63,453 nucleotides of DNA from Candidatus Parvarchaeum sp. (GCA_049965555.1 JBMFWF010000003.1:1-63453); one strand, 5' to 3'. Positions 20,005 through 45,818 are shown, numbered from the stretch's first letter. Program-made: numbers and translations. Notes: a model not told the origin generated them from the letters alone.

Positions 20005-20132
20005 AGTTTTTATTTGTTTTTAGCGTATTTAAAGTTTTTCTTTTAACTGCAAAAAGCAAAATAGGATTATTTACTTTTTTTCTAGAAGAATAGAATAAAA
20101 AGACATAAAAAGAAATGCGGCAATATAATTGA

Positions 20133-20498
20133 ATGGAGCAGACAGATTTGACAAGAAATGTAGTAGAACTTAGAGAATCTTTGAAGATATTCGACCAAAG
20201 GATTTCGCAGCTCAAAGATACTATCAAGATGGTTGACCAGAATAATTTGGAGAAATATAAAGAGATAAAGGTTGCATTGCAGGAGATCAACAACGAGCTG
20301 TCAAGCAGCAAAACCAAAATCTTTGAGCTTGATGATGCTTTGAATAGATTGGAAAGGCAGTCTGAAACGTATGCCAAGGCGCAGGATATAAAAGTCATAG
20401 AAAAATACCTTAGCTTTATAGATCCTTCAAGGTTTTTAAATAAAGAAGACGTTATTAAAATTGTAAACGACTACATGAACAGTAAAAAATGGAGTTAA
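20133..20498 (+). CDS. Coiled-coil hypothetical protein
   Basis: Heptad pattern; C-terminal EKYLSFIDPSRF. Confidence 0.75.
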   Translation: MEQTDLTRNVVELRESLKIFDQRISQLKDTIKMVDQNNLEKYKEIKVALQEINNELSSSKTKIFELDDALNRLERQSETYAKAQDIKVIEKYLSFIDPSRFLNKEDVIKIVNDYMNSKKWS

Positions 20499-21142
20499 AT
20501 ATGAACTTAATGAATGCATTCAAGAAAAAAGATGATAATGAAACGCCTGACATAAGTTCTATGCTCAACAACGGAATGAGCCAGCAGGACATAATAGACA
20601 GCTTAAGACAGCAGGGATATGACAGCACCACAATCAAAAATGCGCTCGTAAACGCGCTTAAAAGCAATCCAACAAAGCAGGCTTCTCAGCAGCCAATGCA
20701 ACAGATGCAGGAAGAGCCTATTCAAAGAATTCAAAACATAACGCAGCCGGCCGTACAGGAAAGCAGGCAGTCTTACGAAAGCAGTCCTTCAATGAGCAAT
20801 CAAAACCTTGAAAGCATACAGCAGATACTCGAGCAGATAATCAATGAAAAGTGGAAAAGTTCCGCCTCGGAACTGAATTCATTAAGGTCTAGCGTAAATA
20901 TAAACACAAATTCTATAGAGAACATAAAGGATAATTTGGAAAAGTTAAGCCAGAGGATAGACAGCATACAGAACACTATGATAGGAAAGACTGAAGAATA
21001 CAATAAAACTATCTCTGACGTTAATGTAGAATTGCAGGCCTTTGAGAAGGTGATAGACAGATTGATACCTGCGATAAGCGACAGCATAAAAGAACTCAGA
21101 GACTTGATTGACGATTTAAAAAAAGAAAAACAGACAGAGTAG
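20489..21142 (+). CDS. Hypothetical protein: small helical domain, Q/P linker, coiled coil
   Basis: GMSQQDIIDSLRQQGY, Q-rich linker, IEQIINEKW-like coiled coil. Confidence 0.75.
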   Translation: MELNMNLMNAFKKKDDNETPDISSMLNNGMSQQDIIDSLRQQGYDSTTIKNALVNALKSNPTKQASQQPMQQMQEEPIQRIQNITQPAVQESRQSYESSPSMSNQNLESIQQILEQIINEKWKSSASELNSLRSSVNINTNSIENIKDNLEKLSQRIDSIQNTMIGKTEEYNKTISDVNVELQAFEKVIDRLIPAISDSIKELRDLIDDLKKEKQTE

Positions 21143-21202
21143 CGAATAATGCTTTTTCTGCACATTTTAACGTTTAAATACTACTTGTATTCTTTGAAAA
21201 TT

Positions 21203-21916
21203 GTGGAATACAAAAAGGATTTAAAAAATTTTAAAGACTTAGATGACTTGCTGGGAGAGGATTACATATATGGAAATTACGATTTAAGCAAAGCCATACT
21301 AGAAAAAACCGCTAGTCTGCTAGTTAAAAACTCCGTAACAATACTGAATAAACCATTCAAATATGTATATTTAGTGCACAATGAAAAGCTAGAAAAGAAG
21401 ATTCAAGGCATAAATAAATTTATTGATAATCTAAAAGCTGATTCATTGGGGTACCTGTGCTTATTGATCGGCAGGGATTTTTACATGCTTAATTCAAACA
21501 ATTATGACATGTCTGTGGTTACCAAGGAGCTAAAAAACGAGGGATTGATTTACTTTTGGGACCACAAAGAATTAAATGACAAAGAAATAGATTTCATCGA
21601 GAACATAAAGGAAGATAAAGAATTAAAGAAAGAAAGATTAAATCGCGTATTAGAATTAAATAAGATGGCAGATTCTGATTACCTTGCGTATCAGATAAAG
21701 AAAAGATCCGAGGCCTTTTTAAACGAAGAAGAACTGTCAAATGTATACAAGAAATTCAGTGAGAAGCCCTTATTTATAATGGATAAAAAAGAGATATACT
21801 CAATTGAATACAAAGACAATGTGGCCCAGTTATCAAAGCACAATGCCAATGACGACAAATACAGTTTAATGATTGGAATGATAAACAGCAAATACAACGA
21901 CAACATGTATGAGTAA
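21203..21916 (+). CDS. Hypothetical protein (N-terminal LDDLL, C-terminal MYE)
   Basis: GTG 21203 preferred because TTTAAATA lies 30 nt upstream. Confidence 0.7.
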   Translation: MEYKKDLKNFKDLDDLLGEDYIYGNYDLSKAILEKTASLLVKNSVTILNKPFKYVYLVHNEKLEKKIQGINKFIDNLKADSLGYLCLLIGRDFYMLNSNNYDMSVVTKELKNEGLIYFWDHKELNDKEIDFIENIKEDKELKKERLNRVLELNKMADSDYLAYQIKKRSEAFLNEEELSNVYKKFSEKPLFIMDKKEIYSIEYKDNVAQLSKHNANDDKYSLMIGMINSKYNDNMYE

Positions 21917-22730
21917 TAAAAATCTTGATGAGATAATAAACGAAGATGAAGAAAGCCTATATGATAACAAACTTTCGGATATTTTCCAGCTTTCTGCAAA
22001 TATAAAGAGCAAATCAAGATTGATAAGGCAGGAGTTTGGGATAAATGACTATTATGTATGCATGGCGGATAAAAATATAGTCAAAGACATAAGATCATTA
22101 GAAGACTTTTTGCTTGAGGCGCTTTACTTTGCTCTTAAAAGGCCGTTGGTTTTAATTTATAATGAAGAAGCCTTTTGCCTTAGACAAAAATTCGATGGGT
22201 TGGAGGCAAGCTACTTTTTTGATCCAGTTAAGGCGTCAAAAAAAGAATTGACAAAACTAGAAGAACTGTACAAAAAAGGCGAAATCCCAGATGTTAACGA
22301 TGACAGAAAATTCTCTGAAATGTACAGGATTTCATCTGAAATAAAAGAAAAAAGTTTTAATGTCTACCTTGAAGACGAAGGTTTTTCCTTTTATATTACA
22401 GATACTTCTGCTCTCGGCAAAAACGCAGAAAAAATACTGAATTATATATCCAATCTTAATAAAACTGACCTTGAAAGATTCTCCAATATAACAAGCCTTT
22501 TCTCCATAATAGACACGGAAAAAAAGAAAAGATATGCAATACTTAGCTATAACGAAGGCAATGCTCCTAGGATTAAATTCAGTGGGACGGCTGACAGTGA
22601 AGAGGAGTATGCAGGACTAAACAAAATACTTGAAATCGCAAAGGAAAGCGGGCAGAAATTCTTGAGCATAAGCAAAAACACTAATAATTATTCGCCAAAA
22701 GATGACGCCCCATCAGACATGTATCAGTGA
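21909..22730 (+). CDS. Hypothetical protein (N-terminal LDEII, C-terminal MYQ)
   Basis: 273-aa ORF overlapping the preceding gene by 8 nt. Confidence 0.75.
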   Translation: MSNKNLDEIINEDEESLYDNKLSDIFQLSANIKSKSRLIRQEFGINDYYVCMADKNIVKDIRSLEDFLLEALYFALKRPLVLIYNEEAFCLRQKFDGLEASYFFDPVKASKKELTKLEELYKKGEIPDVNDDRKFSEMYRISSEIKEKSFNVYLEDEGFSFYITDTSALGKNAEKILNYISNLNKTDLERFSNITSLFSIIDTEKKKRYAILSYNEGNAPRIKFSGTADSEEEYAGLNKILEIAKESGQKFLSISKNTNNYSPKDDAPSDMYQ

Positions 22731-24020
22731 TTAAGGTATAAGCCTGTCAGGAGTTCTTGGCAAAAGCGTTGCCTCGGCCACATTTTCCAGGTTAAGCATC
22801 TGCTTCACTATTCTTTCTAAACCAGTTCCTGAACCGCCGTGCGGAGGAACTCCGTACCTGAAAAAGTCTGTATAGAATTTGAACTTTTCCGGATCCAAAT
22901 TCTTTTCCTTTAATTGTTTTATAAGAACGTCATACCTGTGTTCCCTCTGCGCTAGCGTAGTTATCTCCAGTCCTTTGTATATCAGATCTGCCCTATTTGT
23001 AACTTCCTCATTGCCCTCTTTTTTCATGTGATAGAATTGTGCAATCGACCAAGGGAATTCTGTCAAAAAGAAAAAGTCGCTGCCGTATTTTTCCTTTACA
23101 TACTGGCCCATTATCCGTTCTCCTTCTGGATCAATGTCGCCATCCTCTTTTAGCTTGTTTCCATACTTATTCAGTATCTCTCCCGCTTCCTTTATTGTTA
23201 TCCTTGGAAATGGAGTTTTCAATTCTCCCAATTCTATGCCGTAAAGCTCCAAATCTTTTTTATTCTTTTCCTTTACTTCCTTGAATATTCTTAACATCAA
23301 ATTTTCCATTACGGTCATTACTTCCTCGTATGAAGTTATGAAGCTCATCTCCAGATCCACGCTTGTGTACTCTGTCAAATGCCTCGTTGTGTGGTGGGGC
23401 TCTGCCCTGAACACTGGCCCTATCTCAAATACTTTTTCAAAACCGGCAGCCATCATCATCTGCTTGTAGAACTGGGGCGACTGTGCAAGAAAAGCAGTCT
23501 TGTCAAAGTAAAGGACCTGAAAAACGTTTGCTCCTCCCTCTGTTGCCTGCGATATTATCTTTGAGGAGTGTATCTGGTAAAAACCATTGTCCTCGAAAAA
23601 CTTGATTATTGCATTGCTTACAGTGCTTTGTATCTTAAAGATAGCGGCTGTTTTAGGCTTCCTTAAACTTAAAAACCTATAGTCAAGCTCCTTGTCTAAT
23701 GAAGACTGCACCTTTTCGCTTAAATTCAACGGAACGGGCTGCTCTGCTACTGTAAGTATTTCCAGCTTTTTAGGTATTACCTCGTAGCCGTTCACTGCTT
23801 TTTCATTCTCTTTCTTTTCGCCTGTAACCTCGATTACCGACTCGGATTTTATTTCTCCAAGCTTTTCGAATAATTCTGGATTTGAATTTTTTGAAACGGT
23901 TACCTGGTATTTTCCGTTTATGTCCCTGAGGGTTATAAATGCCAGCCCTCCCAAGTTCCTTACGTTCTCAGCCCATCCTTTTATCTTCACATCTCCATTT
24001 TCATTGATTATCATAAACAT
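22731..24020 (-). CDS. aspS: Aspartyl-tRNA synthetase, archaeal-type (no GAD insert)
   Basis: OB anticodon domain, LAQSPQFYKQ, FRAE...RHLTE, GVPPHGG.G.GLER; 429 aa. Confidence 0.92.
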   Translation of the reverse strand: MFMIINENGDVKIKGWAENVRNLGGLAFITLRDINGKYQVTVSKNSNPELFEKLGEIKSESVIEVTGEKKENEKAVNGYEVIPKKLEILTVAEQPVPLNLSEKVQSSLDKELDYRFLSLRKPKTAAIFKIQSTVSNAIIKFFEDNGFYQIHSSKIISQATEGGANVFQVLYFDKTAFLAQSPQFYKQMMMAAGFEKVFEIGPVFRAEPHHTTRHLTEYTSVDLEMSFITSYEEVMTVMENLMLRIFKEVKEKNKKDLELYGIELGELKTPFPRITIKEAGEILNKYGNKLKEDGDIDPEGERIMGQYVKEKYGSDFFFLTEFPWSIAQFYHMKKEGNEEVTNRADLIYKGLEITTLAQREHRYDVLIKQLKEKNLDPEKFKFYTDFFRYGVPPHGGSGTGLERIVKQMLNLENVAEATLLPRTPDRLIP

Positions 24021-24139
24021 TCCAATACTTTTACCTTAATAAGTATTGCTATACAAATTACAATTTAATAAATTTTATTGCAAAATCATTACTTACATAA
24101 ACCTTAAACATCCTATTTTAGCTTTACGAATAATTTTAA

Positions 24140-24446
24140 CTAATCCGCCGAGAATTCCCCTTCCTTAAGACGGGAGATGAAAGACAGTAAGGAAAAGTAT
24201 TTACCGAAGAAATGATAAAACAAAAAATATGCGTAATTACAAATTCAGGCCGTATCCAAATAAAGTAGTAAAGGCAGAATTGAATAAGCAATTAGATTTA
24301 TACCGATGGACTTACAATAAGCTTCTAGAAGAACTGAATGAAGCGAAAGAGAAGCTCGCAGAGTCAAGACCTCTGCAGCAGAGAAAACTGTTGCAAGTCA
24401 AGGTATTGAAGCGAGAAGCCCCGTGCAAAAGCGTGGGGTAGTTCAC
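24140..24446 (+). mobile_element. Internally deleted IS200/IS605-family (tnpB) element, MITE-like
   Basis: Left subterminal hairpin about 24155-24177; right hairpin CCCCGTGC-AAAA-GCGTGGGG then TAGTTCAC; candidate target TTTAA at 24135-24139; left boundary uncertain. Confidence 0.8.
24229..24441 (+). pseudogene. tnpB: tnpB remnant (N-terminal HTH joined to the extreme C-terminus)
   Basis: YKFRPYPN...YRWTYNKLL fused to E.RPL...QV...KREAP; RuvC core missing. Confidence 0.8.
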
Positions 24447-24453
24447 GATAAGT

Positions 24454-25341
24454 ATGGAAGAAACTTTAGAAGGCGCAAGGCTACATACTGCAGAGCATGT
24501 TTTCGCAAGGGCCCTGCAGGAACTTGGACTAAACATCCATGTAAGGAAGGCAGATACATACAGACAGGATAACGTAGGAAAGGCCTATTTAAAGGAGATA
24601 ATTCCCTTCGAGAAAGTAATGGAAGCTGAAAAAGCTGTCAATTCGAAAATAATGGAAGAGCTTTCAGTAACTGAGGAAAATTTTGAAAATCTAGAGGCCG
24701 CAATGAAAAAGAATCCGAAACTAAGGTTCAATGAAGACAGACTTGACAAAGAAAATCAGGTAAGGGTAATAACCATAGGCCAGTACGATTTTTCGGCATG
24801 CAAACACAGGCATGTAAAAAACACTAGAGAGATAATAGCGTTTTCTGTAAAACGCATTTCATATCTAGGCGGTGAAACTGAGATAGAATTTTTGGCAGGA
24901 AATGCTGCTTTGCTTTATCTTTTGCAGATAAAAAATCAGGTTTTGGGGGCAGCAATGGAAAGGCATTTTGTTCCAGAAATGCTTTCGGAGTACATAAAAA
25001 ATGAAAACCAAAGGATGATTGAAATTGAAAAAGAGGAAAAAGAGATTCTGTATAAACTTTTGGAAAACAGCTCTAAACTGATAACCTTAAAGAACGTAAA
25101 AATTTCTAAATTTTATGGGGAGCTTAATTACTTCATAAAAACACATGCAGAAAGATGCATAGCAATAACTAACGGCCAACAAATAACTATTATGAAGGGA
25201 AAGAATTGTAAAGTCGATCTTTTAAATATTGGGGAAAGATTGAAATCACTGGGTTTCAATGGCAGCATCAATGAAAGTTCAATAAACGGAAAGGCAGATG
25301 AAAAAATAGCAGAAGAGATTGATAAACTGTGGAAAGCCTGA
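24454..25341 (+). CDS. AlaX-like aminoacyl-tRNA editing protein
   Basis: Zn ligands HTAEH and CKHRH; VRVITIG.YD.SAC. Confidence 0.8.
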   Translation: MEETLEGARLHTAEHVFARALQELGLNIHVRKADTYRQDNVGKAYLKEIIPFEKVMEAEKAVNSKIMEELSVTEENFENLEAAMKKNPKLRFNEDRLDKENQVRVITIGQYDFSACKHRHVKNTREIIAFSVKRISYLGGETEIEFLAGNAALLYLLQIKNQVLGAAMERHFVPEMLSEYIKNENQRMIEIEKEEKEILYKLLENSSKLITLKNVKISKFYGELNYFIKTHAERCIAITNGQQITIMKGKNCKVDLLNIGERLKSLGFNGSINESSINGKADEKIAEEIDKLWKA

Positions 25342-25898
25342 ATGCTATTTCAAAAGAAATAGAAAAATGCACCCTCTGTGATCTATGCCTAAAAAGGAAG
25401 AATACTGTGCCGGGAGAAGGGAACGAAAAGGCAGAGGTGGTAATAATCGGGGAAGCCCCTGGTAAAAACGAAGACCTGCAAGGAAGGCCGTTTATAGGCA
25501 TGTCTGGAAACTTTCTTTCAAAGGCTTTGAAGAGCATTGGAGTAGATAGATCGACGGTTTTCATAACAAATGCCGTGAAGTGCAGGCCTCCAAACAATAG
25601 GAAGCCAAGCAAAAAAGAGATAGCTACTTGCAGGCCCTATTTAGTAAGGCAGCTTTCCGTAATACAACCAAAATTGATCCTTGCGTTGGGAACGTCAGCG
25701 GCCTCTTCTCTTGGCATTGATTTCAAGCATTTAAGCGAGGTAAAAAGCAAATTTATTGAAATTGAGCTCGACAGCAAACATTTCAAATGCCTGGTTACCT
25801 TCCATCCATCCTTCCCCATGCGATTCCCCTCTGCAAGAGAATCGTTTTTAGCGGATCTTTCGATGGCCTTTAATTCATACAAAAATTTATCTACATAA
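25329..25898 (+). CDS. udg: Uracil-DNA glycosylase family 4 (4Fe-4S)
   Basis: CxxCxL, IIGEAPG..ED..GRPF.G, TNAVKCRPP.NR.P, TFHPS. Confidence 0.93.
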   Translation: MESLNAISKEIEKCTLCDLCLKRKNTVPGEGNEKAEVVIIGEAPGKNEDLQGRPFIGMSGNFLSKALKSIGVDRSTVFITNAVKCRPPNNRKPSKKEIATCRPYLVRQLSVIQPKLILALGTSAASSLGIDFKHLSEVKSKFIEIELDSKHFKCLVTFHPSFPMRFPSARESFLADLSMAFNSYKNLST

Positions 25899-25940
25899 TA
25901 ATAGTAAAGTATTTATATACCTGGCATCATAGTATAATGT

Positions 25941-26927
25941 ATGAAAGCAGCTAAAAATCCGAATGAAAACGATCAGAAAAAACAGGCGCAGCAGCCTAAT
26001 GAACAAGCACAGAAATCTAATGCAAAAAAGACTTTAGAGGACATAGTACTCGAAAATGGAGATTACTACAATGCATTGAATGCATTTGTAACAAACGTAA
26101 AAAGATTCGAGAACAATAAATATGATAACTTTCCAGAATTCAACAAAAACTTCGTCGCAAGCCTTGTAAATTACCTCCAGCACACGCCATTAAAAGATGA
26201 TTCGAAGATGATGAACGGCTACTTGATGGGCTTAAATTCGCTTTTGACTAATGATTCGGTAGGGATGGACAAGAAAAAGGACTACATACAGAAGGCGATA
26301 AACCAAGCTATGCCTTTGCTATCGGCAGAATACAATAAGATAAAAGGCAGTTTATCCCAAGAGCATTACCATAATATGGTCCAGGGCGCATTAAATGATC
26401 CGATGATAATGTTCAGCCCGTTTACGAACAACCTTAAGCAGGAATTAGGCAAAAATGATGTGTACGGCAGGAATATAAAGTTGAATCAGTTGGCAAAGGA
26501 AATGGAAAACGACTATAAAAAGGATAACTTTTCAAAGCTTGGAGAATACTTTGAAAAGATACCTTACAACAAGGAAGCCTTCAAGAAGTTAAATCTTAAG
26601 GATGAAGAGATAGATAAAATGATGAACGATGCAAACAAGATATTCAAAGATCTGTCTTCAAGCTTAAAAGAAGAAGACCAAAAAAGACTCATGGCTTCTA
26701 TGATGAACATATTGGCAGATGAAAGCAGCAAGCAATTTTCCAACTTGGACAAATCATACTCGGTTAATGCTTTCAATAATTCAAACGCAGATGCTACAAC
26801 TGGTTTATATCTTGCTTTGAATGCAGCTAAGGGCACTACTCAAGAATATGGCAAAGTTAACCCCAAAGACATAGCTAATATGTTGGGCGCAGGGCCGTAC
26901 GGTATGGGCCCCGGAATGTTTAGTTAA
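25941..26927 (+). CDS. Hypothetical helical protein (LEDIV motif, C-terminal GMFS)
   Basis: 328-aa ORF; TTTATATA about 30 nt upstream. Confidence 0.78.
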   Translation: MKAAKNPNENDQKKQAQQPNEQAQKSNAKKTLEDIVLENGDYYNALNAFVTNVKRFENNKYDNFPEFNKNFVASLVNYLQHTPLKDDSKMMNGYLMGLNSLLTNDSVGMDKKKDYIQKAINQAMPLLSAEYNKIKGSLSQEHYHNMVQGALNDPMIMFSPFTNNLKQELGKNDVYGRNIKLNQLAKEMENDYKKDNFSKLGEYFEKIPYNKEAFKKLNLKDEEIDKMMNDANKIFKDLSSSLKEEDQKRLMASMMNILADESSKQFSNLDKSYSVNAFNNSNADATTGLYLALNAAKGTTQEYGKVNPKDIANMLGAGPYGMGPGMFS

Positions 26928-26941: not shown

Positions 26942-27856
26942 ATGGAAGTAGTAGGATTTTTTTCCGGAGTTGGTTACAAAGAAAAGAATAGCAGTAAACT
27001 AATACGGCCTTTAAATACGGCAGCCGGCCAAACTACTAATTACAGTTTGATAGATACTAATGGCCCTGACGCAATAGAAAAGAGCTTTGATTATAACAAG
27101 TGGAATGATAACAGAAAGTACAACCTGCAGAATTTCACTGGCTCGCTGCAAAGGGAGATGGGAACTGGCAATATAGCCGATTTGATGGCTTATAATGAGA
27201 TTGCTAAGGTGCAAGTAGCAGCAGAGATGCCCGGTGCGAAGGTAGTTGGTTTAGAAGACAAACTTTCGGAGATAAGAAGATTAAATCAATTGGAGCAGGG
27301 AGGACTGGAACCGCATAAGAATCTGGGCCCATTCAAGCTTTTAAGGTATGAGATTGTAAATGCGGGTGCATTGAAAACATATGACAGCAATGGAAATCCA
27401 AAGATACAAAAGATGTTTAGACTCAAAATAGAATATGGTTACAGGATAATAGATAAAAAGAAAGCCTATCACCAAAACATGCATGATTTAGCATTAAAAT
27501 TGTTACAAAATGCAGCAAATAAAAGAATACATTTCGGCAATTTAGACAGAAGATGGTTTAATGACAGTGTTTATGCTGATGACCTTATGGTAGAATTTCT
27601 TTCTCCATATAGATGGGGCGGGAGCTATGATTACAGGAATATTAACTTAAGAGATAACAGTTCTCTGAAAAGACACGGAATCGCTTACAAAACTTTAGAT
27701 GGGATATTCGGAGGAGTATTAAAAGGACTTGTAGTTGGCCCGAGGGTAAGCCTAGTTTCCACAAAACCTATGACAGAAGAAAGAGTGAGAGACTTAATGA
27801 GCATACTTGATCTTAAAGGAGCTTATAGCATAGAAAAGGAGGAGGAAAACAATTGA
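26942..27856 (+). CDS. Hypothetical protein
   Basis: 304-aa ORF with strong SD; no recognised family. Confidence 0.78.
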   Translation: MEVVGFFSGVGYKEKNSSKLIRPLNTAAGQTTNYSLIDTNGPDAIEKSFDYNKWNDNRKYNLQNFTGSLQREMGTGNIADLMAYNEIAKVQVAAEMPGAKVVGLEDKLSEIRRLNQLEQGGLEPHKNLGPFKLLRYEIVNAGALKTYDSNGNPKIQKMFRLKIEYGYRIIDKKKAYHQNMHDLALKLLQNAANKRIHFGNLDRRWFNDSVYADDLMVEFLSPYRWGGSYDYRNINLRDNSSLKRHGIAYKTLDGIFGGVLKGLVVGPRVSLVSTKPMTEERVRDLMSILDLKGAYSIEKEEENN

Positions 27857-28671
27857 ATATGATAAAAACCCATAAACTTGAAAAGCTTATATCGGAAGGA
27901 TCAAGTGCCGTTTATTTTAGCCTTAACCCTGCTGTAACAAGCAATGAAATCTGGACAAAAGGGAACGGATTGGAAAGAAGCTTAGGGTCGAAAAAACCAG
28001 GAGATGCCGTTACTTTGATAGGCAGGATGGAAGAAGAGAAAGGCAAGGAATCCTACTTTTTACACGGGGTTTACGAGTTGATACCTTTTTATTCGGACAA
28101 AGCCAAAGATGAAAACTTCAAAAATGCGTATGATAAAATGATACCGGGTGTAGCCTACATAAACCCTGTTTCCGTTGGCATAAACAGTGAAGAGTTCAAT
28201 AATTTGGACCAGGAGACTGGCCCTGTAAAGAGAGGAAATAAAGAATTTCTTGGTATATTAAATCTGGATTACCTAATCGGCTTGAAAAGAGGAAAAATAA
28301 GCGACTTCTTCGTAAATGGTGCATATCTTATAAGGAAACCCGGAGCAGATAAAAACAAATACGTTCAGCCCAGTGTTAAATACAAGACTATGAAAAATAT
28401 AGGGCAGGGGGCAGGTCTAATTTCCTCAAAAATAACTGACAAAATTGCAGATGCGTATGGATTTCCAAGGCCAAGACCTGGAGATGTTGTAGTGGGGATT
28501 GGCTACTTCGAAGATTCTGTGTTAGGCTACAAAAAGCATGAGCCTTATGCGTTTTCTATGGTAGTGTCAGCTGTCGGCGACAGAATACAGGTTCCTCCTG
28601 ATGTGATAGACAGCATGTATCTGGAGGTTATTCTCGGTGTAGAGAATAAAGTGGGAAAGAAACTTGTCTAA
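27853..28671 (+). CDS. Hypothetical protein, possibly tandem OB-fold
   Basis: Internal repeat KKPGDAVTLIGRMEE / PRPGDVVVGIGYFED; GGAGG upstream. Confidence 0.72.
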   Translation: MNMIKTHKLEKLISEGSSAVYFSLNPAVTSNEIWTKGNGLERSLGSKKPGDAVTLIGRMEEEKGKESYFLHGVYELIPFYSDKAKDENFKNAYDKMIPGVAYINPVSVGINSEEFNNLDQETGPVKRGNKEFLGILNLDYLIGLKRGKISDFFVNGAYLIRKPGADKNKYVQPSVKYKTMKNIGQGAGLISSKITDKIADAYGFPRPRPGDVVVGIGYFEDSVLGYKKHEPYAFSMVVSAVGDRIQVPPDVIDSMYLEVILGVENKVGKKLV

Positions 28672-44801: not shown

Positions 44802-45818
44802 ATGAAGATATTGTTTATAGGAAGGTTTCAGCCCTTTCACAAAGGCCACCTTAATACAATACTTTCAATCTGTAAAAGAGAAGATAAAATAAAAATAGTT
44901 ATTGGTAGCAAGCAGTTTTCTTTTACTAAAGAAAATCCCTTTACATTTGAAGAAAGGAAAGAGATGATTGAACTTTCGCTTAAAGATGAGAATTTTAAAA
45001 ATTTCGAAATATTCGGTGTAGAAGATAAAGAATCACATAGCAAGTGGTTTAAAGAACTTGTAAACACTGTTGGTTACTTTGATGTGTGCTACACTGGAAA
45101 TAATCTTGTTGAAAAAATACTTTTAGGGAACAAAATTAGAGTAGAAAAAATAAAGGAATTCAAGCGTGATAAATACTCCGGGACAAAGATAAGAAAGAGA
45201 ATTTTATCGGACAAAACAGTAGATAATTTAATACCAAACGGGACTTTAAAAGTTATAAACAAAATAAACGGAACAGAGAGAATAAAGAGCATTAACATAA
45301 ATAGTATTAAAAGGATATTCACTGTAGGACATTCTACTAGAGATATAAAAGATTTTGTATCATTGATGAAGGAATATGGAATTAAGGAGGTTGTAGACAT
45401 AAGAACAATAGCAAGGTCTAGACATAATCCACAGTTTAACTCTTATGACTTAAAGACAATCTTATTTGAAAATGGAATTAGATATAAACACTTTAAAGAA
45501 TTAGGAGGCCTCAGAAAAGCTGATAAAGATTCAATTAATACATTTTGGGAAAACGACTCTTTCAGAGGTTTTGCTGATTACATGAAAAAGAAGGAATTCA
45601 AAGAAGGGATAGATAAGCTAATTAAACTAGCACTTAAAAAAAGAGTCACGATAATGTGTGCTGAGATATTGCCATGGAATTGCCATCGCTCACTTATAGC
45701 GGATTTACTTACTGCAAAACACTTTTCAGTGACACATATAATAAACCACAATCAAACATTAGAACATAAATTAAACAAGCATGCAATAAAATACCGGGGC
45801 AGCCTTATCTATAGATAA
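44802..45818 (+). CDS. nadM: NMN adenylyltransferase (NadM) fused to DUF488
   Basis: GRFQPFHKGH, NPFT..ER..MI, SGT.IR; then IFTVGHS, VDIR...SR.NPQF, LGG.R, MCAE..PW.CHRSLIAD. Confidence 0.88.
   Translation: MKILFIGRFQPFHKGHLNTILSICKREDKIKIVIGSKQFSFTKENPFTFEERKEMIELSLKDENFKNFEIFGVEDKESHSKWFKELVNTVGYFDVCYTGNNLVEKILLGNKIRVEKIKEFKRDKYSGTKIRKRILSDKTVDNLIPNGTLKVINKINGTERIKSININSIKRIFTVGHSTRDIKDFVSLMKEYGIKEVVDIRTIARSRHNPQFNSYDLKTILFENGIRYKHFKELGGLRKADKDSINTFWENDSFRGFADYMKKKEFKEGIDKLIKLALKKRVTIMCAEILPWNCHRSLIADLLTAKHFSVTHIINHNQTLEHKLNKHAIKYRGSLIYR

Follow-up and report, generated by a model that had tools for sequence, protein, structure and literature searches.

Conserved HbYX-type tails in a tandem pair of Candidatus Parvarchaeum proteins, candidate partners of the 20S proteasome

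Whether proteins with an HbYX-like ending are partners of a proteasome, and of which one, is the question raised by three ORFs located between positions 21203 and 26927 of the window, a stretch of 63,453 nucleotides of chromosomal DNA from Candidatus Parvarchaeum, an ARMAN-type DPANN archaeon of acid-mine habitat (GCA_049965555.1, JBMFWF010000003.1:1-63453). A viral origin of the window was considered and rejected, as it is part of the housekeeping chromosome of a cellular archaeon. The ORFs, here called A, B and C, end in NDNMYE, PSDMYQ and GPGMFS respectively, and all three carry an N-terminal motif, as had been described in a sequence-only reading of this DNA; the motif, L-[DE]-[DE]-[IL]-[ILV], is conserved in each family. 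That reading took the three for orphans and proposed that they are ATP-independent proteasome adaptors, activators or inhibitors, possibly aimed at the proteasome of a host. It had also noted the absence of a Walker A motif, and a search with the pattern [AG]xxxxGK[ST] indeed finds none in A, B or C, nor do these proteins match an AAA family in Pfam.

ORFs A and B are tandem paralogues

ORF A (21203-21916, plus strand) encodes 237 aa from a GTG codon at 21203; an alternative ATG is located upstream at 21149 and would give a protein of 255 aa, and the GTG start is the one in agreement with the "MEY.." starts of the orthologues. ORF B (21909-22730, plus strand) is translationally coupled to A and encodes 273 aa, which form two tandem alpha/beta repeats of about 120 aa (hhalign 97%, E 1.2e-10). 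ORF A is a two-domain paralogue of B (hhalign 98%, E 1.3e-13), and the tails of the two are thus common by descent and count as one instance, not two, so that the picture of three independent orphans has to be given up. The N-terminal motif of A is L-D-D-L-L (21239-21253, plus strand), a low-confidence short helix preceding the folded core, where 90% or more of the aligned rows retain L13, and that of B is L-D-E-I-I (21924-21938, plus strand), where L6 is invariant in 14 of 14 sequences. At the other end, A has the tail N-M-Y-E at 21902-21913, and B has a tail consisting of residues 257-273, which ends in P-S-D-M-Y-Q and is located at 22677-22727 with the HbYX triplet at 22719-22727, both on the plus strand.

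The predicted model of B is confident (pLDDT 86.0, pTM 0.82), with values below 50 for residues 1-11 and for the 17 residues 257-273, and the tail is predicted to be a flexible, disordered appendage on a confident core. For A the AF2 model has a pLDDT of 79.6 and a pTM of 0.67, with 52-59 for residues 1-20 and 54 for the last block; the tail of A is short and its flexibility is less clear than for B. The fold of B has no known relative, neither model gives a structural match above noise, and PAC2/PbaB chains are not among the structural matches listed for A or B. In Pfam, A matches no family and B has only a sub-threshold unrelated match (E up to 0.1); the PAC2 profile PF09754 is matched by neither.

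When 1.84 billion proteins were searched exhaustively with an HMM, 17 matched, and all of the 15 representatives that were fetched end in [M or L]-Y-x. Judged by these sequence searches, A and B belong to a small and previously undescribed family that is confined to Parvarchaeum-type archaea. The members show 31-75% identity within one genus, B is present alone, without A, in several genomes (G003, G020, G002, G005, G045), and the family is lost or broken in some others (G013, G021, G044). The B gene of G013 is broken by a stop codon, indicating that B is dispensable in that genome.

Conservation and frequency of the tails

The Tyr of the B tail is present in 14 of 14 orthologues, together with Ser in all 14, Asp in 13 and Met in 13 (Leu once). 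Residues S269 and Y272 are invariant, D270 and M271 are kept in at least 90%, an acidic D/E precedes Hb-Y in every one of the 14 sequences, and the last residue is free (Q, R, L, S or A). The A orthologues have the Tyr in ten of ten and the Met in nine of ten (Ile once). Across 14 + 10 + 6 family members Tyr is kept at -2, and the tail of the family invariably closes with [D/E/S/G]-[M/L/I]-Tyr-x.

The Tyr codon is TAT eight times and TAC eight times in 16 B-type genes, the Ser, Asp and Pro codons vary too, and the end of B overlaps no gene, as the AspRS gene on the opposite strand ends at 22731, indicating that selection acts on the B tail at the protein level. In A, the TAT-G of the Tyr-Glu codons holds the ATG start of B, and this is found in all eight overlapping A-B pairs; the conservation of the A Tyr could thus in part be a coupling constraint with the B start. 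Against a pure constraint of this kind, Tyr is kept as TAC in three A genes that do not overlap B. With a fixed Tyr, a hydrophobic residue before it, a free last residue and a flexible linker, the A/B tail appears to act as an HbYX motif should, and the alignments support this.

Endings of the type [MLIVF][YF]x are found in 41 of the 865 ORFs of at least 60 aa in the genome, against 21-34 ORFs when the pattern is read 3 to 30 residues upstream, so that they are in no more than a mild excess, near background. Tyr-only endings number 17 (8-16 in the upstream control) and M-Y-x endings three (0-2 in the control), the latter being A, B and the PAC2 homologue. Since the frequency is near background, it is conservation and not the count that carries the argument. 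In T. acidophilum, 63 of 1484 proteins end in the broader HbYX pattern (excerpted text of PMC3493965), and 0.93% of archaeal proteins have the motif ending (PMC11475706); most proteins with an HbYX-like ending are expected to touch no proteasome.

This common background is one point in favour of taking the A/B tail for a degradation or turnover signal, or for an intramolecular or structural element, with a likeness to HbYX that would be functionally coincidental. A/B would then be short-lived substrates or serve a function outside proteasome regulation. The fast evolution and the losses of the family fit accessory rather than core machinery. Such an explanation is nevertheless unlikely, as the Tyr is position-specific at -2, in the family D described below too, while its synonymous codons change, which shows a specific terminal contact under selection, and as the tail of B is predicted to be disordered and not packed.

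The ending of ORF C

ORF C (25941-26927, plus strand) is an unrelated genus-wide orphan, with no homology to B and no Pfam family. The N-terminal motif L-E-D-I-V is located at 26034-26048, with L32 invariant, and the Gly/Met/Tyr-rich end closes with GPGMFS. Among 19 orthologues the pattern [MLIVF][YF]x is found once, in the window's own copy, and a second orthologue ends in G-Y-I, fitting the broader published pattern. Copies with 71-76% identity end in GMGLGY, GMGLG or DMGMSY, and six distant orthologues are without the C-terminal segment, so the M-F-S ending is very probably a chance match in a low-complexity C-terminus. Eight close orthologues do keep a loose P-Y...G-x-G-M-G theme, for which another role is possible. 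At the sequence level, conservation of the tail thus supports the proposed proteasome partnership for A and B but not for C.

The proteasome and other tailed proteins of the genus

The cell encodes its own 20S proteasome, with genes for both the alpha and the beta subunit, and P19, G21, Y28 and K70 of alpha are invariant among 28 class-wide alpha sequences; K70 is presumably Lys66 of T. acidophilum, going by residue numbering and alignment offsets. Pro17 and Gly19 are given as invariant pocket residues by Forouzan et al. (excerpted text of PMC3493965). A PAN-type OB domain was not found in this 92%-complete genome, which makes alternative proteasome regulators plausible. Two proteins whose families are known for docking to the proteasome have the same kind of ending in this genus. 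The PAC2 family protein (PF09754, E 5.2e-23), the sole match to this profile in the genome, ends in NMYV, and 30 of 30 orthologues read end in Hb-Y-x. A Cdc48-D2-like single AAA ATPase of 483 aa ends in GLYS, with Tyr at -2 in 21 of 21 orthologues, and Cdc48 itself ends in NYFG. The A/B tails do not co-vary with that of PAC2; in genome G006 the endings GEMYA and DTMYA are found beside a PAC2 protein ending in NDIYG.

Another family, D, is encoded elsewhere in this genome (98088-98825 on contig 1 of G000). It is unrelated to A/B in sequence and has both an L-D-D-L-L N-terminal motif and an HbYX tail; of its 25 orthologues, 24 have Tyr at -2. The same combination in an unrelated family argues for the HbYX reading of A/B. 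The N-terminal L-[DE]-[DE]-[IL]-L motif recurs in no fewer than five families that are unrelated in other respects (A/B, C, D and the 483-aa AAA ATPase).

Parvarchaeum-type ARMAN cells have been reported in association with Thermoplasmatales, and a role aimed at a host would make A/B effectors or viral proteins directed against the proteasome of a Thermoplasmatales archaeon. Like many effectors the family is lineage-specific and fast-evolving, and the common N-terminal motif could be an export or transfer signal. The locus is, however, ordinary housekeeping chromosome, where A/B have MFS transporter, AspRS, AlaX-like and UDG genes as neighbours and where the window ORFs and the Pfam search show nothing of phage or plasmid origin. 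The ORFs and Pfam matches also give no sign of a signal peptide or of secretion genes, the pocket residues of the cell's own 20S are intact, and the cell's own PAC2 protein bears the same M-Y-x ending, all of which makes a host as the target highly improbable.

Linkage to cc121 and p217

The conserved block that contains A and B opens with cc121 (20133-20498, plus strand), which encodes a coiled-coil protein of 121 aa with Pfam matches that are sub-threshold only and of coiled-coil type. Its 3' end overlaps the start of p217 (20489-21142, plus strand), to which it is translationally coupled in the same way as A is to B, and in the related loci that were read it precedes p217 as well. The p217 protein has 217 aa, with a conserved N-terminal domain of about 55 residues that looks UBA-like by eye, followed by a linker rich in Gln and by a coiled coil at the C-terminus, and matches no Pfam family. 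It has 97 relatives, the taxa named being Parvarchaeota, Parvarchaeum and Acidifodinimicrobium, plus once "Nanoarchaeota archaeon", and it is found in 32 of 39 other genomes of the family. Within the genus p217 is always ahead of the HbYX-tailed genes, and the gene after it ends in [M/L/I/G]-Y-x in 23 of the 25 genus genomes where the locus was read, a count that takes in two-domain genes of the A/B type and one-domain genes (113-138 aa), the latter matching the second domain of B (hhalign 81%, E 1.2e-5). The strict linkage of A/B is to p217/cc121 and not to proteasome genes, none of which is located within the cc121-p217-A-B block.

This arrangement, with its two coupled gene pairs, would suit an M-Y-x tail that docks not to the 20S alpha ring but to another partner, the candidates being p217/cc121 and the N-domains of Cdc48 and the 483-aa ATPase. 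In eukaryotes the D-D-L-Y-G end of p97 is a ligand of PUB and PUL domains, and the acidic residue preceding Hb-Y in B resembles this tail. We regard such a partner as a rather less likely alternative, because family D has a tail of this kind away from p217, a Pfam search detects no PUB- or PUL-like domain in the neighbours, and a fixed Tyr with a free last residue is the pattern of proven 20S binders and of the cell's own PAC2 and AAA proteins.

Proposed role of A and B

The reading that we favour, with a probability of about 0.45, is that A and B associate, without need of ATP, with the alpha ring of the cell's own 20S, as suggested by the tails of the same type in its PAC2 and AAA proteins and by the conserved pocket residues of alpha. 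The A/B tail would insert into the pockets between the alpha subunits like the HbYX tails of PAN, Cdc48, AMA and PbaB, and the proteins would be a tethering adaptor or a gate-opener, possibly as an A-B hetero-oligomer, with the N-terminal motif left free for a second partner; inhibition or chaperoning are further possibilities. From the genes we infer the docking itself and any influence on the gate, and likewise how A/B oligomerise and what the N-terminal motif does. According to the excerpted text of Forouzan et al. (PMC3493965), gate opening needs ring-shaped oligomers with many tails. PbaA of P. furiosus has an HbYX tail, yet it does not bind the mature 20S (excerpted text of PMC3605417), indicating that an HbYX ending is not in itself a predictor of binding.

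A wider reading, which is decidedly improbable, makes cc121-p217-A-B a lineage-specific, ATP-independent proteasome cap in the PAN-less Parvarchaeum. The M-Y-x tails would anchor A/B to the alpha ring in such a cap, the two coiled-coil proteins cc121 and p217, with the small N-terminal domain of p217, would be the receptor arm, and the L-[DE]-[DE]-[IL]-L helix at the N-terminus would be a second short docking code. If this were true, the code would wire A/B, C, D and the 483-aa ATPase into one proteasome-centred network.

Comparison with known systems

PbaB of P. furiosus, like PbaA an archaeal protein of the PAC2 family (PF09754), is a non-ATPase that binds the mature 20S via its tail and stimulates it without ATP, and 19-23 of its tail residues are invisible in the crystal (excerpted text of PMC3605417). 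The B model likewise has a folded core and a flexible C-terminal Hb-Y-x tail of about 20 residues, and the NMYV of the genome's PAC2 homologue is like the NMYE of A. A/B differ from PbaA and PbaB in being without sequence relation to them, in having a different alpha/beta unit of about 120 aa in one or two copies, and in the added N-terminal motif.

The eukaryotic Pba1-Pba2 or PAC1-PAC2 proteins are a paralogous pair whose HbYX tails dock onto the alpha ring. A and B resemble them in being adjacent, coupled and tailed paralogues, but they belong to another fold family, and a heterodimer of the two is suggested by the gene arrangement. The HbYX motif of PAC1 is mentioned in the excerpted text of PMC3605417.

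Bacterial Bpa/PafE is, like A/B, a small, lineage-restricted non-ATPase, and it docks to the 20S via a C-terminal motif containing Tyr. This motif is GQYL, and Bpa forms a ring; A/B end in [ML]-Y-x instead and are unrelated in sequence. Bpa/PafE (Rv3780) is described as an ATP-independent activator of the bacterial proteasome (PMC4254994).

AMA and Cdc48/VAT are archaeal AAA ATPases bearing HbYX (excerpted text of PMC3493965). Unlike these, A/B have no AAA domain or Walker A motif and cannot by themselves unfold substrates. What A/B have in common with them is the terminal motif, here in a PAN-less archaeon, and the ATPase ending in GLYS and the Cdc48 ending in NYFG fit such a network.

Genomic setting of the locus

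Contig 3 of a 783-kb genome (28 contigs, 92% complete) makes up the window. ORFs and Pfam matches around the three proteins under study include an MFS transporter, an archaeal-type AspRS, an AlaX-like editing protein and a uracil-DNA glycosylase, and the source names on relatives of p217 (encoded just upstream of A) and of family D (a separate protein family on contig 1) include Candidatus Parvarchaeota, Candidatus Parvarchaeum acidiphilum ARMAN-4 and Candidatus Acidifodinimicrobium. The setting among cellular genes and the Parvarchaeota-type relatives identify the window as chromosomal DNA of a small DPANN archaeon and not viral DNA. Since the locus is on an archaeal chromosome and the cell encodes its own 20S proteasome, with an alpha subunit of 236 aa and a beta subunit of 206 aa, the host proteasome that the sequence-only reading had suggested as a target finds no support, and any docking would be on the 20S of the cell itself. 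A 70-aa IS605 OrfB/TnpB remnant with the N-terminal HTH only (PF12323, E 3e-9) is located between the AspRS and AlaX-like genes (24229-24438, +).

The A and B proteins

ORF A (21149/21203-21916, +) ends in NDNMYE, ORF B (21909-22730, +) in PSDMYQ and ORF C (25941-26927, +) in GPGMFS. These coordinates and tails are as first described, a motif scan agrees that a Walker A motif is absent from all three, and the Pfam search gave no family for any of them. The start first chosen for A, GTG at 21203, is the likely one over the upstream 21149, since the orthologues begin MEY.. at that point. The three had been taken as separate orphans, but profile comparison relates A to B as a paralogue (98%, E 1.3e-13, 230 columns), and the two constitute one family. 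Pairwise BLASTP of A against B gave nothing, and the relation is visible with profiles only. No more paralogues were found in the genome with the profile of B or with that of the small one-domain proteins described below. A look through RNA runs listed none for 20100-22750, which has no bearing on expression.

The AlphaFold2 model of B, made from the B alignment, has a pLDDT of 86.0 and a pTM of 0.82 and consists of two similar helix-strand units, while residues 1-11 and 257-273 fall below pLDDT 50. Profiles of the two halves align with one another (97%, E 1.2e-10, 108 columns), and the model of A (pLDDT 79.6) is akin to that of B. In Foldseek against the PDB the best E for the B model, 1.8e-2, missed the limit of 0.001, none of 48,161 chains reached Z 5 in a wide VIA-align search (best Z 4.3, rmsd 6.1, 132 aligned), and the BFVD viral library held nothing within the same E limit of 0.001; in the ESM Atlas the best feature score for B was 0.85 with a TM of at most 0.30, both below the bars. 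For the A model the best of the 48,161 chains (Z 4.7, rmsd 3.2, 75 aligned) is not convincing. No fold relative was thus recognised for the predicted structures, and a new fold is not claimed. Two possible links of B to AAA+ adaptor proteins were dropped as being at noise level, namely a MecA cluster of the ESM Atlas (0.84) and YjbA with the ClpC N-domain (VIA-align Z 3.4).

Frequency and conservation of the C-terminal tails

The HbYX motif is a C-terminal hydrophobic-Tyr-any residue motif by which partners dock on the alpha ring of the 20S proteasome. The genome-wide count that had been proposed as a check shows that [MLIVF][YF]x ends 41 of the 865 ORFs of at least 60 aa, against 21-34 at ten shifted positions; the Tyr-only version ends 17 of these ORFs against 8-16, and M-Y-x three against 0-2, the three being A, B and a PAC2 homologue. 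As a bare count the HbYX-type ending is therefore not remarkable in this genome. A broader HbYX pattern is given for 63 of 1484 Thermoplasma acidophilum and 133 of 3368 Methanosarcina mazei proteins, with few expected real partners, by Forouzan et al. (PMC3493965), and the ProEnd paper places the motif on 0.93% of archaeal proteins (PMC11475706). Within the window, a protein in which a cytidylyltransferase-like (NMNAT-type) domain is fused to DUF488 (44802-45818, +) also has an HbYX-type end, ..SLIYR.

Conservation sets the A and B tails on firmer ground, and here the proposed check of orthologues came out in their favour, with the penultimate Tyr present in 10/10 A and 14/14 B sequences. Relatives of B are detectable in 12 of 24 other genus genomes drawn, and a 5.8-billion-protein index holds only five clusters of them, B itself included. 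In the alignment of 14 B-type proteins, 19-76% identical to the B of the window, neither the penultimate Tyr nor the Ser four residues before the end varies, Met is found in 13 (Leu once) and Asp in 13 (Glu once), and the last residue varies between Q, R, L, S and A. A was detected in 8 of the 32 other genomes of the genus, and in its alignment nine of the 10 sequences have Met ahead of the Tyr and one has Ile, while the residue after the Tyr is E, G, V, S or A. When 1.84 billion representative proteins were searched exhaustively with a profile, only 17 matched at E up to 0.001, and all 15 sequences fetched from these end M-Y-x or L-Y-x. The Tyr codon of 16 B-type genes is TAT in eight and TAC in eight, the Ser, Asp and Pro codons vary too, and the stop of B abuts that of the convergent AspRS gene with no overlap, indicating that the constraint is on the protein.

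The end of A overlaps the start of B (21905-21916, ATG TAT GAG TAA), where the ATG of B is formed by the AT of the Tyr codon and the G of the Glu codon. All eight overlapping A-B pairs have TAT as the Tyr codon and a last codon starting with G, and the overlap limits the last residue of A to E, G, V or A in such pairs. Given this overlap with the B start codon in 8/8 pairs, a share of the conservation of the A tail could serve translational coupling. AAT, GAT and CAT codons would allow the overlap equally well as TAT, and the Met before the Tyr is not explained by it; in the three A-position genes that lack the overlap the Tyr is kept, with the codon TAC.

ORF C

Of 32 other genus genomes, 24 have a relative of C, but among 19 orthologues the [MLIVF][YF]x end is found only in the copy of the window. 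Copies of 71-76% identity end in GMGLGY, GMGLG or DMGMSY, the ending is G-Y-I in a single more distant copy, and six are without the C-terminal segment. The ending of C, which had been grouped with those of A and B, is thus put down to chance. B and C give no match by pairwise BLASTP and are unrelated also by profile comparison. Directly after C, on the same strand, are two orphan genes of 304 and 272 aa (26942-27856 and 27853-28671) that overlap by 4 nt and have no Pfam family; the first, which ends ..EEENN, has a conserved place beside C in the genus. The two genes and C look like one block of three.

The genes following p217

Upstream of A and B are cc121, a 121-aa coiled coil (20133..20498, +), and p217 (20489..21142, +), which are translationally coupled. 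In p217 a Gln-rich linker joins a small conserved N-terminal domain to a coiled coil; the protein is confined to Parvarchaeota-type genomes and was found in 32 of the family's 39 other genomes. The DNA after p217 was read in 25 genus genomes. B, with or without A, follows in 14, among them G013, where B is split by a TAA stop and a TnpB-like piece is located between B and AspRS. Two divergent two-domain proteins follow in three (G006, G022, G014), a protein of 113-138 aa takes the place of A/B in six, and two have no such gene, namely G021 and G044 (58-aa ORF only). The six small proteins end in SMYR, TMYG, TGYA, EGYS, TGYA and IGYN, and a profile match to the second domain of B (81%, E 1.2e-5, 73 columns) gives moderate support to a relationship with that domain. 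In 23 of the 25 genomes the gene directly after p217 consequently ends in [M/L/I/G]-Tyr-x, and in two other genera of the family no such tailed gene was found at this place. The simplest history would be a one-domain tailed protein that underwent internal duplication and then gene duplication with the tail kept throughout, which would make the A/B family a short evolutionary series with both terminal motifs kept at every stage. One of the contigs read for these other genera, contig 20 of the genus genome G018 (L199), carries a second p217 copy and has an ORF content mirroring that of a genome of another genus (G089, L194), with the same 148-aa, 135-aa and 463-aa ORF starts, and this contig is probably mis-binned.

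The tight genomic link of A and B is to p217/cc121 and not to proteasome genes, and for this reason binding of the tail to these neighbours, or to an AAA N-domain, rather than to the 20S is a serious alternative.

Other tailed proteins and the N-terminal motif

The only PAC2-family protein of the genome (PF09754, E 5.2e-23) ends in NMYV, and 30 orthologues end in MYV (17), MYG (2) or V/L/I-Y-G (11); co-variation of the A/B tails with this tail was looked for and not seen. A 483-aa single-AAA ATPase on contig 2 (4980-6431, L044), closest to the VAT/Cdc48 D2 ring (5vc7, E 7.3e-57), ends in GLYS, and 21/21 orthologues have Tyr at -2, with ends GLYS, GMYS and others. The Cdc48 of the genome ends in NYFG. 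A PAN-type OB domain was not found in the 92%-complete genome, and the 483-aa protein may be an AMA-like proteasomal ATPase of a PAN-less lineage. Its unassigned 250-residue N-terminal region has up to three L-[DE]-[DE]-[IL]-[IL] motifs, resembling the N-terminal motif L-[DE]-[DE]-[IL]-[ILV] of A and B, and its orthologues keep K-L-[ED]-x-[IL]-L near residue 50.

Family D is represented by a 245-aa ORF on contig 1 (98088-98825, L045), outside the window, that starts ..ILDDLLKQDY.. and ends ..SYMSLYY, with a conserved end ..S-[LM]-Y-Y. This orphan is restricted to Parvarchaeota, where it is named only 'hypothetical protein', and 30 of the genus's 32 other genomes have it; the Pfam search gave no family and the ESM Atlas no usable match. 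Tyr is at -2 in 24 of 25 orthologues, one of the 25 ending in FYIR, and position -3 is occupied by L, M or I in 21 and by G in three. Against the A profile the alignment covers only the 12-residue N-terminal motif, and family D thus appears to be an independent second case of N-terminal motif plus HbYX tail, not homologous to A/B. Another 245-aa ORF, at 17207 on contig 1, is unrelated by homology comparison.

Genome-wide, [LIVM][DE][DE][ILVM][ILVM] occurs within the first 60 residues (41 matches, 0.79 per 1000 aa) at 2.8 times its density elsewhere (53, 0.28). The motif is present in 38 ORFs, 17 have the [MLIVF]-Y-x end, and four have both, namely A, B, D and the 483-aa ATPase (Fisher p 0.005, or 0.023 with A/B counted once), although density and Fisher statistics are both post hoc, the pattern having been drawn up after viewing the proteins. 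The association is a lead, not proof. An ESCRT link of the motif was dropped, as the genome has no Snf7 match. The genome has two FtsZ genes; on contig 2 (35634-36101 and 24890-26017, outside the window), a 155-aa orphan with R-L-E-E-L-I-N-E-D is found beside one of them, and the other has S-L-E-E-L-I just ahead of the GTPase core.

The tails as putative proteasome-docking signals

In the A and B tails the Tyr at -2 never varies, the residue at -3 is hydrophobic or small, the last position is free and the linker is floppy, the same pattern by which HbYX is defined for PAN, Cdc48 and AMA (PMC3493965) and likewise for PbaB (PMC3605417). A putative proteasome-docking tail is the best available reading of these sequences, with a probability that we put somewhat below one half (about 0.45). 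The docking reading first proposed thus persists for A and B, with a strongly conserved HbYX-pattern tail, and is given up for C and for a host target. The alpha subunit keeps P19, G21, Y28 and K70 among 28 class-wide sequences. From the alignment offsets, K70 is presumably the equivalent of T. acidophilum Lys66. Pro17 and Gly19 are named as invariant pocket residues by Forouzan et al. (PMC3493965). A complex prediction with three alpha subunits and B residues 234-273 gave no answer (score 0.02, mark 0.32) and speaks neither for nor against docking. The Pyrococcus furiosus PbaA carries an HbYX motif yet fails to bind the mature 20S (PMC3605417), and Forouzan et al. (PMC3493965) argue that the gate is opened only by ring-forming proteins presenting many tails.

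The family bears on proteasome regulation in genome-reduced DPANN archaea without PAN, and raises the question whether lineage-specific proteins repeatedly acquire an HbYX tag to reach the proteasome. Should 20S binding fail, A and B would instead carry a conserved Tyr-penultimate docking code for another hub, and would be a caution against motif-only predictions such as HbYX databases. No literature pairing HbYX with DPANN was found, and among the papers listed on Parvarchaeota and the proteasome none, judged by titles and abstract openings, deals with the A/B family. Other literature searches led to the PbaB, AAA-network, Bpa and ProEnd papers. To our knowledge only a handful of non-ATPase proteins (PbaA/PbaB) plug into the archaeal 20S, and to these the A/B family would be a lineage-restricted addition among non-ATPase HbYX proteins, distinguished by short motifs at both ends and by its conserved setting in a block of four genes. 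PbaB has the HbYX motif G-Y-L and its last 19-23 residues are disordered (PMC3605417); A and B are like PbaB in being non-ATPases with a hydrophobic-Tyr-x end on a tail predicted to be flexible.
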